Source of the DNA: a virus
Taxonomy: Duplodnaviria; Heunggongvirae; Uroviricota; Caudoviricetes
Virus record (IMG/VR): IMGVR_UViG_2778261689_000004
Strand: one strand, 5' to 3'
DNA length: 12,400 nucleotides
The position numbers and the translations under genes are program-made. Below the pieces are notes generated by a model. It saw only the letters and a list, made by a program, of their open reading frames with translations, was not told where the DNA came from and searched no databases. Of this stretch, positions 1,984 through 6,195 are shown piece by piece; position 1 is the stretch's first letter; every line of letters begins with the position of its first letter.

Positions 1984-3007
<1,024 letters not shown>

Positions 3008-3011
<4 letters not shown>

Positions 3012-3319
3012 AGATATTTATGATGAGGACGCTCGTGCTTATTGGCAGGATTTTCAATCTTAAAGGAGTACTGATGCTGCAGATAAGACTCAACTTTTTC
3101 TGACAATTTTTCTGCTACTTCCAGGAAGACTTGCCGGACGCTCCTTCTGGCTGCTGCCTCATAAAACTCCAGCGCAGCTCCTTCAACACGGTCCATGGCG
3201 ACATCCAGGTCAAAAATTTCACCGTCAAAGCGTTCTTTGTCCTGTAAGGCTACAGTTACCGTAACTTTATTCTCAAAATTACGGACTCCTTTCACAACCA
3301 GTTCATAGTCTTGAGTCAT
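3008..3319 (-). CDS. ydfR: DUF1327-family prophage protein (YdfR-like), 103 aa
   Basis: ATG at 3317-3319 preceded by an AGGAGAG ribosome-binding site; sits between holin and endolysin as YdfR does in Qin. Confidence 0.8.
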
Positions 3320-3323
3320 TGGA

Positions 3324-3539
3324 TTACTCTCCTCTCGCAGCCTTACGCCTGTCTTCTTTAATCTTGAAATAAAGATTTGTCAGATACGTCAGCAGGCCAA
3401 AAACCAGGCTACCCAGCACACCGATTGCAGCCCACTGTGACGGAGTTACTTTATCGAGTAACTGCAATGCCCAGAAACCAGCATTACCCGCCGATGTGCC
3501 ATAGGCAACACCTGTTGTTAACTTATCCATTGATTTCAT
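3324..3539 (-). CDS. essQ: Phage 21-type pinholin (S21-like holin/antiholin with dual start), 71 aa
   Basis: [28 protein letters not shown]...: dual-start motif M-K-S-M, Gly/Ala-rich first helix, second helix, charged C-terminus ([13 protein letters not shown]); GAGG ribosome-binding site before the ATG at 3539. The 96-aa track ORF is an in-frame upstream extension. Confidence 0.85.
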
Positions 3540-3758
3540 ATCCTCACCCCGATGTACACGGATGGTGCAATATGTTTGAAAAGATCGGAGTCTACGGGGT
3601 AGTTTTGACAGCACACGTTGTTCTCAACGGCGCTAAAAAAACATACACATTAAAAATGTGGGTAATTATTTTGAAAGAAAGTCATATATAAAATAATAAT
3701 ACGAGAAATGTTTTCATATTTAGTGTACTGTATACGGCCATTTATACAGGAAAAGCCT

Positions 3759-3929
3759 ATGTCAGAACGTAAAAACTCAAAATCACGCTGTAATTATCTC
3801 GTTAAATGTTCCTGCCCAAACTGCACCCAAGAGTCAGAACACAGTTTTTCAAGAGTACAAAAAGGTGCCCTTTTGATCTGCCCTCATTGCAACAAAGTAT
3901 TCCAGACAAATCTTAAAGCTGTAGCCTGA
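3759..3929 (+). CDS. Small zinc-ribbon protein, 56 aa (possibly YnfU-equivalent)
   Basis: MSERKNSKSRCNYLVKCSCPNCTQESEHSFSRVQKGALLICPHCNKVFQTNLKAVA with paired CxxC motifs (CPNC ... CPHC); AGGA about 8 nt before the ATG at 3759; the 17-codon upstream extension of the track ORF has no ribosome-binding site. Confidence 0.5.
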   Translation: MSERKNSKSRCNYLVKCSCPNCTQESEHSFSRVQKGALLICPHCNKVFQTNLKAVA

Positions 3930-3985
3930 TTGATTTTATTAGTAACAAGTATTTTTTATATTTTAATAATATATTTAAAGCAGAT

Positions 3986-4011
3986 AATAAAAAACCCGCC
4001 TGAGCGGGTTT
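3986..4011 (-). terminator. Rho-independent terminator (strong on the minus strand)
   Basis: Stem AAACCCGC / GCGGGTTT with loop CTGA (3992-4011); on the minus strand it is followed by UUUUUUAUUAU. Lies about 280 nt downstream of cspB and 63 nt downstream of the zinc-ribbon ORF. Confidence 0.5.
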
Positions 4012-4292
4012 GAGATTGTGGTGCTTTTTGTGGGAGTCATCCACTTACGCACTTTGTTTTGCCATGCCAGCAGTTAGCTTCTGCTGTAAAACTATTCATG
4101 CAGCAAACCTGCACTTCACCACAATGGTTAGCATACTTTTCCTGATTAAGATTTTGCCAAATATGCTAGCCATTGTTTCATGTATTGGACCTCCTTACTT
4201 TTTATTAAAGAGATCCAATATTCACTACTCTGTCCGTATCTCTACTCAGGCATCAGCCTTCTTCGTTATCGTATACAGACGAGCGATGAATT

Positions 4293-4508
4293 TTAATCAG
4301 TAATGATGACATTTGCTGCTGCAGGACCTTTAGCACCACTCTCTATAGAGAAGGTAACCTTTTGACCTTCAAATAAGGTTCGATAATTATCATTCTGAAT
4401 CGCAGAAAAATGCACAAACACATCTTTACTACCATCAACAGGAGAAATAAAGCCGAAACCTTTATCAGCGTTAAACCATTTTACTAAACCAGTCATTTTA
4501 TTTGACAT
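4293..4508 (-). CDS. cspB: Cold-shock protein CspB (CspA family), 71 aa
   Basis: [38 protein letters not shown]...; AGGA ribosome-binding site; 5' UTR contains GCCGAAAGGC (plus-strand reverse complement at 4528-4537), which I recall as the cspA-family upstream box. Confidence 0.95.
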
Positions 4509-4675
4509 TCTACATTCCTTAACTTGAGCCTTTCGGCATAAATGGTTTGCATAACAGAAACGACTTCGTACTTAATTGGAGAGACTCAAAGAAGGAATAA
4601 GTGAATAACACCTGAAATGAGAACTGCTTTAGTAAACTACTTCGTATATCGTCTGTTCTTCAAACCGACGCAATC

Positions 4676-4704
4676 ATTAACGCATAGTTGAACATATGAA
4701 GCAA
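4676..4704 (-). promoter_or_regulatory. Candidate sigma70 promoter of cspB (-35 TTGCTT, 17-bp spacer, -10 GTTAAT)
   Basis: Hexamers about 160 nt upstream of the cspB ATG, matching the long cspB 5' UTR I recall; AT-rich UP-like tract just upstream; same ATGCGTTAATG element as at cspI. Confidence 0.4.
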
Positions 4705-4808
4705 TGTTTATTTTAGACATCCAGCCATCTTCAACCCCATCAAAAAACTATAGCTTTCTTCAGGAACGTGTGTATAGTGCGCCAAGTTATCAGTATTAAG
4801 GAATTTTT

Positions 4809-5021
4809 TTGTCCCGTAAAATGACAGGAATTGTCAAAACCTTTGACGGCAAAAGCGGCAAGGGTCTTATCACCCCATCCGATGGTCGTATCGATGTCCA
4901 GCTTCATGTTTCAGCGCTCAATCTCCGCGATGCAGAAGAAATTACCACCGGATTACGCGTGGAATTTTGCCGGATAAATGGTCTGCGTGGCCCTTCAGCT
5001 GCCAATGTTTACCTTTCATGA
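4809..5021 (+). CDS. cspF: Cold-shock-domain protein CspF, 70 aa, apparent TTG start
   Basis: Translation [38 protein letters not shown]... requires TTG at 4809; AAGGA lies 6 nt upstream; the first in-frame ATG (4821) is 19 nt from that site. Confidence 0.85.
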
Positions 5022-5313
5022 GCTATATTAAAGCTTTAATTTCAGGCCCCATCGGATCACACATGGAGAGTTTTTATGAATAACCCCGTCTGTCTTGATG
5101 ACTGGTTGATTGGCTTTAAAAGCTTATGCTGTACTTTGGCCGTAATAGCTCTGCTAATAATATAATAAGCAGACTCATTGTGTTTAGGGACATTGTACTG
5201 GAAGAAAACATTTTAAACATCAGGCAAATAACCAAGTCACCAGCTAAATAATAAGTTAACAGACATGAGTCCCGGGATGAGATTCAACATTACCATTGCC
5301 CCATTTAAAGCAC

Positions 5314-5337
5314 AAAACCCGCTCATCAGCGGGTTTT
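5314..5337. terminator. Intrinsic terminator hairpin between cspF and quuQ (candidate tR'-like site for the late transcript and/or cspF terminator)
   Basis: Stem AAAACCCGC / GCGGGTTTT with loop TCATCA; the plus strand continues with a T-rich tract (CTACTTTTTC) and the minus strand with UUUUGUGCUUU. Confidence 0.5.
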
Positions 5338-5382
5338 CTACTTTTTCTTAACGTCGGGTATACAAAGCCCATCGTTGAAAAA

Positions 5383-5411
5383 ATTTTATCCATATTTTTT
5401 GAAAAATGCAA
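5383..5411 (-). promoter_or_regulatory. Candidate late promoter (PR'-like) just downstream of quuQ: -35 TTGCAT, 17-bp spacer, -10 TAAAAT
   Basis: Near-consensus sigma70 hexamers on the minus strand starting 32 bp after the quuQ stop; the hairpin at 5314-5337 lies about 40-60 nt downstream of the predicted start site, as in lambdoid PR'-qut-tR' modules. Confidence 0.45.
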
Positions 5412-5442
5412 ACATCATGTCGCCATCTTCAGCAAAAATCAT

Positions 5443-6195
5443 TTATCTCGTCACCTTCCTCAATTGCGCTTCCGCGTATGCTTCTTCCTGCCAGCACTTT
5501 GTTACCAGTTTACCAATGACGTCCGCATACCCCTTATACCACTGATAATCGGTCAGGTCTGGTACCAGCTTCTGGACATGACGTCGTGCCAGCGTGGTCG
5601 GTAAACGACTAAACCGGTTTCCATTACAACGCCCACAAATCTTATATACCGGTACGCCATGAAACCGGGTTCTTTTTTCATCCAGAACAATCCCTTTACC
5701 CTTACACCCTCTGCACGCTGTGCTGGCTTCGCCCTTACCATGGCAATGCTGACATAGTTCCTTCACCCATTCTTCCTTGATTACAGATTCCCCGCGTCTG
5801 TAGTGTTTCACCACTTCGCGCAATACATTATAAAATCCCGTACCTGAACAATGCTCACAGCGAGCCTTACTTGCCGCAGACCTGGAGTAATCAGCAAAGG
5901 CAAAACTCACGAGGTAAGGAATAATCTGTAACCGGATTTCTTCACTCAATTTGTTCAATGTCGGGTTATCCAGTGCCATCGCGTAATTTAGCAGGCCTTC
6001 AATCGCAAACTGAGGGTCCTGAACACCAACTTTTGCCAGAAATAAGGCCAACCCAAGTGGTGCTTTCGACTGCACCATCCCCTGCGCTGCCATTACATCC
6101 GTAATTGTTAAACAACCGGTGCCTGTCGCTGGAGCGTCATCGCTCAATTTTGGAGATTTTGGGGAGTAATATTTTGGTAAGGCTTCAAGGTTCAT
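5443..6195 (-). CDS. quuQ: Lambdoid Q-family late antiterminator, 250 aa
   Basis: Start chosen at ATG 6193-6195 (MNLEALPKYY...) with GGAG upstream; C-terminal Cys-rich motifs (CQHCHGKGE...CRGCKGKG); sits immediately upstream of the candidate late promoter. Confidence 0.85.
   Translation of the reverse strand: MNLEALPKYYSPKSPKLSDDAPATGTGCLTITDVMAAQGMVQSKAPLGLALFLAKVGVQDPQFAIEGLLNYAMALDNPTLNKLSEEIRLQIIPYLVSFAFADYSRSAASKARCEHCSGTGFYNVLREVVKHYRRGESVIKEEWVKELCQHCHGKGEASTACRGCKGKGIVLDEKRTRFHGVPVYKICGRCNGNRFSRLPTTLARRHVQKLVPDLTDYQWYKGYADVIGKLVTKCWQEEAYAEAQLRKVTR

Follow-up and report, generated by a model that had tools for sequence, protein, structure and literature searches.

The late-gene switch of phage lambda consists of the antiterminator Q, the promoter PR' with its Q-binding element (QBE), a pause element and the terminator tR', and the product of this cassette is the 6S RNA. 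In lambda, RNA polymerase makes a sigma-dependent pause at +16/+17 of PR', which is also where Q is loaded, and the 6S RNA has a length of 194 nt. The record of phage P22 labels the homologous counterparts P late, qut, +1 and tR', and it gives the first A of AACGAT as the 5' nucleotide of the late RNA. The N-terminal segment of lambda Q forms a torus, and a polymerase loaded with Q disregards terminators across thousands of base pairs; in terms of Pfam, PF03589 is the Q-lambda family, while PF06530 and PF06323 are the definitions for Q21 and Q82 (PMC9388147).

The window that we analysed, a stretch of 12,400 nucleotides, was identified as Qin, a cryptic prophage of E. coli K-12. On its minus strand, positions 5445-5310 very probably hold the late-gene control cassette of Qin, built on the plan of lambda and P22. 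A previous sequence-only reading had proposed a PR'-qut-tR' module at this place, with TTGCAT at 5411-5406, a 17-bp spacer, TAAAAT at 5388-5383 and a hairpin at 5337-5314, all on the minus strand. These elements are indeed found there, and the proposal is now backed by homology that goes beyond the layout alone, namely by the family of the Q protein, by a gap-free alignment of PR' with lambda and P22 and by an RNA 3' end observed in vivo. The lambda-type switch itself (promoter, sigma-dependent pause signal, early terminator) is of the ordinary kind and contains no new biology, so that the accepted picture of lambdoid late control is unchanged. What is added to the map of Qin is a predicted promoter, a putative pause element and a terminator that were not annotated so far. 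The elements of the control region are as follows (window coordinates, basis of the assignment in brackets):

5443..6195, minus strand: quuQ (ydfT), antiterminator of the Q-lambda family, 250 aa (RefSeq annotation)
5406..5411, minus strand: -35 element TTGCAT of the predicted late promoter PR' (sequence; aligned with TTGACT of lambda and P22)
5389..5405, minus strand: spacer TTTTCAAAAAATATGGA, 17 bp, candidate QBE (position of the lambda QBE, PMC9388147)
5383..5388, minus strand: predicted -10 element TAAAAT (sequence)
5368..5376, minus strand: predicted +1 (A5376) and putative sigma70-dependent pause element AACGAT plus GGG, +1..+9 being AACGATGGG (lambda homology)
5360..5361, minus strand: expected position of the sigma-dependent pause and of Q loading, +16/+17 (analogy with lambda PR')
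5314..5337 (+40..+63 from A5376), minus strand: tR', intrinsic terminator hairpin and U-run, bidirectional in sequence (fold, scan, conservation)
5310..5376, minus strand: predicted PR'-tR' short RNA of 67 nt, counterpart of the lambda 6S RNA (3' end from Term-seq, 5' end predicted)

The protein encoded by quuQ matches PF03589 (3.6e-54) and DnaJ_CXXCXGXG (1.3e-8). In a comparison with the structure of lambda Q (7UBM, E 4.6e-36), residues 1-120 and 160-250 were aligned; QuuQ is full length, and the alignment includes the torus-forming N-terminal segment of lambda Q. Its "arm" carries an insertion of about 40 aa with extra CXXCXGXG zinc motifs. QuuQ is therefore a member of the Q-lambda family in a long-arm form. 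Since QuuQ matches only these two Pfam families, a cassette of the Q21 (PF06530) or Q82 (PF06323) type was ruled out. The phages 21 and 82, which had been suggested for comparison, are thus the wrong family, and the relevant one is that of lambda and P22.

The stop codon of quuQ lies at 5445-5443, and the -35 element begins 31 nt further on, on the same strand. To call the promoter near-consensus, as was done from the sequence, is an overstatement: the -10 element does match TATAAT in five of six bases, but TTGCAT agrees with TTGACA in only three of six, the TTG. A consensus scan scored the site 9 out of 12, reading it as TTTGCA-18-TAAAAT, and found ten promoter-like sites around the locus, compared with 7.2 +/- 2.6 in shuffled sequences. 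Because such sites occur at chance frequency, the hexamers alone prove nothing, and we rejected them as stand-alone evidence. The PR' site stands out from chance through a composite pattern of the lambda type, TANNNT-N6-AACGATGG, which occurs once in the window, exactly at PR', whereas 0.01 occurrences are expected.

The alignment of PR' with lambda is free of gaps: TTGACT in lambda corresponds to TTGCAT in Qin, followed in both by 17 bp, by TAAATT or TAAAAT, respectively, by six bases and then by an identical AACGATGGG (5376-5368 in Qin), which is the pause element at +1..+9 of lambda PR' in the same sequence and register. If the 8-nt anchor is left out, 31 of 72 bases are shared with lambda, compared with 20.4 +/- 3.7 in shuffles (p = 0.005), and 38 of 72 with an Stx2a phage. 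The candidate QBE spacer shares 11 of its 17 bases with the lambda spacer, as counted in the alignment, and the leaders of both Qin and lambda are predicted to form a 5' stem AACG/CGUU. The pause element AACGATGG(G) is also identical in P22 PR', and the -35/17/-10/6 geometry is the same in lambda and P22. Furthermore, the architecture -10-N6-(T)AACGATGG is found after Q in P22, SF6 (with N7), HK225 and Stx2a_EH1910, the Q proteins of which are only 33-42% identical to QuuQ. On the strength of these comparisons, a sigma70 promoter PR' is probably located directly 3' of quuQ, with a predicted start at A5376. A paper comparing the pR' promoters of Stx phages contains nothing on a Qin-type promoter, and the Qin locus is absent from the text and supplements of a genome-wide study of sigma70 pausing (PMC7876045).

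Sequence diversity was calculated for 83 relatives, which represent 31 unique sequences. It amounts to 0.000 in the -35 element, 0.049 in the spacer, 0.096 in the -10 element and 0.014 in AACGATGGG; for comparison, it is 0.193 at the third codon positions of Q, 0.34 at +18..+39 and 0.58 beyond +64. TTGCAT is invariant in all 83 relatives, the variants of the -10 element (TAAGAT, TAGGAT) retain T1, A2 and T6, and the spacer is about four-fold less variable than the synonymous sites of Q. Judged by these values, the control elements are under purifying selection across the relatives. A hairpin with a U-run is retained in 22 of 22 leader variants, including variants with different stems and one with a UUCG loop, and among close relatives the stem CCCGC/GCGGG is nearly invariant. 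Three records deposited as complete phage genomes match the region of the Q 3' end, PR' and tR': PhiR42_1 with 100% identity, Tritos with 95% and 2H10 with 90%. The match extends past the terminator in Tritos and PhiR42_1, and 2H10 has the same Q-PR'-tR' arrangement, followed by cspF, cspB and a holin.

The tR' hairpin has the sequence AAAACCCGC-TGATGA-GCGGGTTTT. A predicted transcript of 68 nt from PR' to tR' folds at -27.9 kcal/mol (z = -5.9), and none of 200 shuffled sequences was as stable. The terminator scan lists the hairpin for the plus strand only, with the tail CTACTTTTTC; on the minus strand, where the U-run is short and interrupted (UUUUGUGCUUU), it was missed because the T-run was counted inside the stem. 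In published Term-seq data (PMC7815308, supplementary file 1) an "orphan" minus-strand 3' end is given at U00096.3 1642356, that is, at window position 5310, and it appears in three lists with scores of 103591, 55368 and 123305. This position is 8 nt past the G+C core of the stem and 133 nt past the stop codon of quuQ. It fits the end of a 67-nt PR'-tR' RNA that begins at the predicted start, so the locus probably makes this short RNA, and an orphan 3' end of the E. coli K-12 transcriptome would thereby receive a concrete identity. A second minus-strand 3' end, at 5142, was recorded in one condition only (PMC7815308) and points to leakage or to a further start site.

Past tR', up to and including the lysis genes, we see the following features:

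3566..5313, both strands: variable cargo ("moron") slot from tR' to the lysis genes, 1.75 kb (homology breakpoints)
5076-5165, plus strand: ynfS (annotation; protein in PMC6001520)
4809-5021, plus strand: cspF (annotation)
4277-4669, minus strand: cspA-type 5' UTR of cspB (Rfam cspA thermoregulator, 158.8 bits)
4293-4508, minus strand: cspB (annotation)
4011-3992, minus strand: terminator-like hairpin, tail TTTATTATCT (terminator scan)
3759-3929, plus strand: ynfU (annotation)
3324-3539, minus strand: essQ (annotation; Pfam Phage_holin_2_1, 1.1e-33)
3008-3319, minus strand: ydfR (annotation)
2478-3011, minus strand: rrrQ (annotation)
1984-2481, minus strand: rzpQ (annotation)

Nine unrelated classes of cargo, one of them with stx2c, follow a common Q-PR'-tR' block in which the Q genes are 94-100% identical. 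In all of these classes, the homology to the others ends with the final terminator base (+63, window 5314). In the class that has an essQ-type holin in common with Qin (L074), homology resumes at 3565, 26 nt before essQ. The G+C content is 0.34-0.45 across 3450-5400; for quuQ and the lysis genes it is 0.46-0.52. In Qin, and in every cargo class where they could be found, the lysis genes come after tR' and have its orientation. The suggestion that cspF and cspB are morons inserted into the late leader is supported by this comparison of sequences, with its nine cargos and its sharp boundaries at 5314 and 3565. For the minus-strand terminator that was thought to lie at 3986-4011 the outcome is mixed: a hairpin is found at 4011-3992, but the major minus-strand 3' end in the Term-seq data is at 4178-4180 and there is none at about 3990. 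Where Qin has cspF and cspB, phages whose Q is 94% identical have stx2c in the same slot, so the same switch likely gates the expression of the toxin there.

We propose the following course of events. The sigma70 RNA polymerase would initiate at about A5376 from TTGCAT-17-TAAAAT, and sigma region 2 would bind again to the -10-like AACGAT (+1..+6), holding the polymerase at approximately +16/+17. When QuuQ is missing, the polymerase would escape and terminate at the hairpin and U-run of +40..+63, which would leave the 67-nt RNA with its end at 5310. When QuuQ is present, it would bind to the spacer that separates the -35 and -10 elements, load onto the complex at the pause site and render it resistant to the terminator. 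The polymerase would then cross the 1.75 kb of cargo, first antisense to ynfS and cspF, next in the sense direction through cspB and the hairpin at 4011-3992 and last antisense to ynfU, and the read-through transcript would finally enter essQ-ydfR-rrrQ-rzpQ.

Potentially, the hairpin and the 3' end could be explained without a late promoter. The orphan 3' end is only 133 nt from the stop codon of quuQ and could in principle be the end of the quuQ mRNA; the hairpin would then end the early-right transcript, and the hexamers would be the product of chance, as the chance-level frequency of promoter-like sites around the locus would allow. We consider this very improbable, given a composite pattern with an expectation of 0.01 occurrences that agrees exactly with lambda PR', a conservation of the -35 element, spacer and pause element far above that of the synonymous sites, and the recurrence of the same architecture behind distantly related Q genes, in P22 under the annotation P late. 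There is somewhat less than an even chance that the main role of the hairpin, or one of its roles, is to terminate the convergent plus-strand unit cspF-ynfS, and that the promoter-like sequence on the minus strand matters less. The scan did call a plus-strand terminator here, the small protein encoded by ynfS, 3' of cspF, has been verified (PMC6001520), and a plus-strand fragment labelled "cspF" in Hfq-CLASH data (ACAGACATGAGTCCCGGGATGAGATTCAACATTACCA, 20 chimeras with hspQ) is placed at about 5259-5295, just upstream of the hairpin. In the class with csp cargo, the A-run that precedes the stem is also longer (GAAAACCCGC; AAGAACCCGC in the other classes) and gives a better U-run for the opposite strand. 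Yet Term-seq gives no plus-strand 3' end at the hairpin, and relatives that lack both cspF and ynfS (SfV, Ayreon, Stx2c phages) carry the hairpin in the same position, so its primary role belongs to the Q module. The termination of cspF-ynfS would be a function added to that of tR' and not a replacement for it; the tR' hairpin is probably bidirectional and serves cspF-ynfS too.

If the hairpin is thus read as the early terminator of a late switch, one may ask whether the switch still works in K-12. Qin is a cryptic prophage, and in the literature that we searched for quuQ and ydfT, the PR' promoter is not the subject of any study and no QuuQ activity is reported. Furthermore, a short way upstream of essQ there is an in-vitro binding site of the sigma70 holoenzyme that is labelled as H-NS-associated (PMC3946193), and the consensus scan likewise has a promoter-like site there, so the lysis genes may not rely solely on PR'. 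The cassette may therefore be a relic that is intact in sequence, with QuuQ too scarce or its long-arm form no longer able to load, so that only the short RNA is made and the lysis genes are silent or transcribed from another promoter. We regard this as rather unlikely in view of a full-length quuQ aligned with the torus segment of lambda Q, the matches to the cassette in complete phage genome records and the purifying selection on the control elements. Maybe the 67-nt RNA is itself a trans-acting regulatory small RNA, as is StxS from the PR' of an Stx phage: its 3' end is abundant in all three Term-seq lists, it has a terminator with a U-tail and an A-rich AAGAAAAAG stretch, and Sy et al. proposed that short RNAs derived from PR' may be a common class of small RNAs (PMC7547250). 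On the other hand, +18..+39 is the least conserved part of the leader and hence contains no conserved seed, the Hfq-CLASH tables had no entry labelled ydfT (a weak negative), and the Rfam scan gave no family at 5310-5445, its matches being only cspA thermoregulators and sok. A regulatory role of this kind appears improbable to us. Just as doubtful is the combined possibility of a constitutive 67-nt regulatory RNA (as StxS or the lambda 6S RNA) and a shared bidirectional terminator that also ends an Hfq-associated RNA from the cspF-ynfS 3' UTR; if it were true, a relic late switch would have been put to new use, with both of its strands serving as a small-RNA locus.

The late control cassette that we see in Qin can be compared with four described systems. 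With the Q/PR'/QBE/pause/tR' cassette of lambda it has in common the Pfam family (PF03589) and a full-length alignment of Q, the geometry of -35, 17 bp, -10 and 6 nt, AACGATGGG at +1..+9 and a terminator ahead of the lysis genes. It differs in the position of the terminator (+40..+63) and the length of the RNA (67 nt), in a weaker -35 element (TTGCAT) and in a spacer sequence that is unlike that of lambda, so a different specificity of the QBE would be expected. QuuQ has about 40 more residues than lambda Q, with two more CXXCXGXG motifs in the arm that contacts DNA and sigma region 4, and in Qin the stretch from tR' to the holin gene is taken up by a 1.75-kb cargo, which has genes on either strand.

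The P22 system of gene 23, P late, qut and t late (NC_002371) has a Q of the same family and the same -10-N6-AACGATGG, with +1 annotated at the first A. Its terminator is likewise very near the start, at +31..+59 as placed from the coordinates of the record. The Q of P22 is of the short lambda type (207 aa), whereas QuuQ is longer, and in P22 the holin gene follows the terminator after about 300 nt, with no annotated cargo between them, unlike in Qin. StxS (PMC7547250), which arises when the PR' transcript of Stx phages terminates early, resembles the putative Qin RNA as a short constitutive RNA from a prophage late promoter under the control of antitermination; StxS is the processing product of a 258-nt transcript, is bound by Hfq and has targets that were shown, whereas the Qin RNA is predicted from its sequence and its 3' end and has a poorly conserved middle segment.

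The fourth comparison is with SfV, Ayreon, mEp460 and the Stx2c-converting phages. Their Q is 93-94% identical to QuuQ where this was measured, and they have essentially the Q, PR', pause element and tR' of Qin, with the cargo slot at the same two boundaries; in SfV and Ayreon the terminator is annotated in the records. It is the content of the slot that differs: in place of cspF, cspB and ynfU of Qin, SfV and Ayreon have an orf and a DNA methylase, and the Stx2c phages have a lipoprotein-like orf, a methylase and stx2A/stx2B.

Over the 3 kb around the finding, E. coli K-12 MG1655 and many other E. coli genomes match the window at 100% identity; the location is the Qin prophage. Window positions follow as window x = U00096.3 x - 1,637,046, an offset that we derived from the sequences in the Term-seq table. 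We re-read the minus strand and found the coordinates proposed for promoter and hairpin to be exact. The elements and the annotated genes (ynfS from PMC6001520) are listed here.

Elements and genes of the region, in window coordinates
6195-5443, minus strand: quuQ (ydfT), stop codon 5445-5443
5411-5406, minus strand: -35 hexamer TTGCAT, separated from the -10 by a 17-bp spacer
5388-5383, minus strand: -10 hexamer TAAAAT
5376-5368, minus strand: AACGATGGG, preceded by TTTTTC
5337-5314, minus strand: hairpin AAAACCCGC-TGATGA-GCGGGTTTT, then GTGCTTT
5076-5165, plus strand: ynfS
4809-5021, plus strand: cspF
4508-4293, minus strand: cspB
3759-3929, plus strand: ynfU
3539-3324, minus strand: essQ
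after essQ, minus strand: ydfR, rrrQ and rzpQ, lysis cassette

To call the promoter near-consensus was too generous: the -10 matches in 5 of 6 positions, but the -35 shares only TTG with TTGACA, and promoter-like sites occur in the region at chance frequency (10 in a consensus scan vs 7.2 +/- 2.6). The window has a single copy of the composite pattern TANNNT-N6-AACGATGG, at this site, with 0.01 expected. The late promoter PR' of lambda reads TTGACT-tattgaataaaattggg-TAAATT-tgactc-AACGATGGG and that of Qin TTGCAT-ttttcaaaaaatatgga-TAAAAT-tttttc-AACGATGGG, with the same geometry and with the first nine bases from +1 identical. Leaving aside an 8-nt anchor, Qin agrees with lambda at 31 of 72 positions (shuffles 20.4 +/- 3.7, p = 0.005) and with an Stx2a phage at 38 of 72. 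Q-lambda-family genes with no more than 33-42% identity to QuuQ are followed by this arrangement too, namely in P22, SF6 (where the gap is 7 nt), HK225 and Stx2a_EH1910; among the compared relatives, Fraca and one Erwinia phage lack the -10-N6-pause-element arrangement after Q. The P22 record annotates the homologues as P late/PR', a qut-like site, the late RNA 5' nucleotide, which is the first A of AACGAT, and t late, at +31..+59 by the record's coordinates. By homology, the Qin +1 would be A5376 and the hairpin would span +40..+63. The RNA from +1 to +68 folds at -27.9 kcal/mol (z = -5.9), a strong hairpin. By analogy with the lambda pause position, the Qin pause is expected at about +16/+17 (5361/5360).

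A 5'-terminal stem is also predicted at window 5350-5376 (minus strand, +1..+27), pairing AACG (+1..+4) with CGUU (+24..+27). A CGTT about 20 nt after AACGAT is found in lambda, P22, SF6, HK225 and one Stx2a phage as well, with different intervening bases, and PR' transcripts may thus carry a conserved 5' stem-loop.

In viral contigs we found 80 loci whose Q is 94-100% identical to QuuQ; with phage records added, the promoter is present in 83 sequences. Throughout these, TTGCAT does not vary, the -10 takes only the forms TAAAAT, TAAGAT and TAGGAT (T1, A2 and T6 are kept), and AACGAT has become AATGAT in two. Pairwise diversity over the 31 unique sequences is 0.000 for the -35, 0.049 for the spacer, 0.096 for the -10, 0.186 for the discriminator, 0.014 for AACGATGGG, 0.34 for +18..+39, 0.164 for the hairpin and 0.58 beyond +64; in Q itself it is 0.193 at third codon positions and 0.017 at first and second ones. 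Thus the hexamers, the spacer, which is where lambda Q binds (PMC9388147), and the pause element are constrained, and the mid-leader is not. In each of the 22 leader variants the fold still ends in a hairpin with a U-run behind it, including those with another stem (CCUCGC-UUCG-GCGGGG) or a shorter one.

The Term-seq data of Adams et al. 2021 contain an 'orphan' 3' end at 1642356 on the minus strand (supplementary file 1, PMC7815308), flanked by ...AAAACCCGCTGATGAGCGGGTTTTGTGC|TTTAAATGGG; three lists contain it (scores 103591, 55368 and 123305). It corresponds to window 5310, 8 nt past the G+C core of the stem. We could thus demonstrate terminator activity in vivo, in addition to the sequence constraints. 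Given a start at 5376, a 5' end placed by homology, the RNA ending at 5310 would be 67 nt long. The 'orphan' label is compatible with the end of the quuQ mRNA, as the site lies just 133 nt beyond the quuQ stop; but because the promoter is conserved and homologous, an independent short transcript is much more likely.

By sequence the hairpin is bidirectional. On the plus strand, Hfq-CLASH lists a 'cspF' fragment, ACAGACATGAGTCCCGGGATGAGATTCAACATTACCA, in 20 chimeras with hspQ; we placed it at about 5259-5295, between ynfS and the shared hairpin and directly ahead of the latter. The position points to an Hfq-associated 3' UTR RNA from cspF-ynfS, which the same hairpin probably also terminates; no plus-strand 3' end at the hairpin is listed in Term-seq. 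Two further 3' ends from the Term-seq study lie nearby. One, at 5142 (U00096.3 1642188, minus strand, single condition), is 168 nt past the early terminator tR' and antisense to ynfS, preceded by an A+T-rich hairpin that lacks a U-run; its origin could be leaky termination at tR', RNA processing, or another, unmapped start that gives a small antisense RNA. The other, on the plus strand at 5969 (U00096.3 1643015, supplementary file 2), is antisense to quuQ and would imply antisense transcription into quuQ from the cspF side.

QuuQ matches PF03589 (3.6e-54) and DnaJ_CXXCXGXG. The Q families are PF03589 for Q-lambda, PF06530 for Q21 and PF06323 for Q82 (PMC9388147). The alignment with the lambda Q chain of 7UBM (E 4.6e-36) covers QuuQ residues 1-120 and 160-250; the stretch between them, ~121-159, is an insertion within the zinc-ribbon 'arm', and no solved structure extends over this insertion. 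Therefore the proper comparison is with lambda and P22, and not, as the sequence-only reading suggested, with phages 21 and 82. QuuQ is a 'long-arm' form, with ~40 extra residues and four CXXCXGXG motifs (a DnaJ-type double zinc module) vs two in lambda Q. The arm of lambda Q touches the Q-binding element and sigma region 4. Among the relatives at 36-42% identity, those whose coding length was seen (about 254-272 aa; SF6, Fraca, HK225 and several Klebsiella phages) also have the long form.

Nine classes of cargo emerge when the DNA behind the terminator is clustered. The Qin class, phage 2H10 included, carries cspF(-)/cspB(+); in SfV and Ayreon the holin is preceded by an orf, a DNA methylase and a terminator; others have a single small orf, a zinc-ribbon orf or a protein of 261 aa ahead of a holin, and one class has an IS element within cspB. 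Likeness of Qin to every other class stops at +63 (window 5314), the final terminator base, and resumes at 3565 in the L074 class, which shares the essQ-type holin, 26 nt before the essQ ATG. The 1.75 kb in between are A+T-rich (G+C 0.34-0.45 vs 0.46-0.52 in the flanks), and the cspB 5' UTR is a full cspA-type thermoregulator (Rfam, 158.8 bits), a regulatory part of the cargo's own. All this supports the proposal that the cold-shock genes are morons, inserted independent units, in the late leader. Stx2c-converting phages (L092, LC727876, 3824-8566) share PR', pause element and tR' with Qin, and their Q has 94% identity to QuuQ. Behind this block come a lipoprotein-like orf, a DNA methylase and stx2A/stx2B; therefore a QuuQ-type switch probably controls Stx2c expression.

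As for the minus-strand terminator proposed at 3986-4011, there is a hairpin at 4011-3992, but Term-seq has no minus-strand end there, and cspB RNA ends mainly at 4178-4180. No other minus-strand 3' ends in the region are as abundant as those at 4180 and 4178, which have scores of up to 2.4 million and lie 113 nt beyond the cspB stop. They have no terminator structure and coincide exactly with the ATG of an 11-codon ORF that is not annotated, MKQWLAYLAKS (within window 4146-4197, minus strand), with a perfect Shine-Dalgarno TAAGGAGGT ahead of the ATG (4197-4189); they may be ribosome-protected, processed or a mapping artefact. Between cspB and essQ, genomic SELEX found a sigma70-holoenzyme site marked as H-NS-associated (PMC3946193). 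It matches TTTATA-16-AATAAT at window 3692-3665 (minus strand), inside the cargo and upstream of essQ, which our consensus scan also found; therefore the K-12 Qin lysis genes may have a second, silenced promoter.

The conserved promoter, homologous to PR' of lambda and P22, and the minus-strand Term-seq end at the terminator support the PR'-qut-tR' reading, and overall we consider a lambda-type late-control mechanism very probable. By homology and from the behaviour of Q-lambda (PMC9388147), transcription would start constitutively at about 5376 and show a sigma70-dependent pause at the AACGAT element. Termination at +67 would then give a short RNA; QuuQ, when present, would bind the spacer and load onto the paused complex, which would then pass the terminator, cross the cargo and reach the lysis cassette. 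What this adds is modest: an orphan RNA end of K-12 receives an identity, QuuQ is assigned to its family as a long-arm variant, and the cargo boundaries are precise. The Qin cassette is a well-supported new case of a textbook system, of which the terminator is already annotated in the close relatives SfV, Ayreon and HK225, and the full set in P22.
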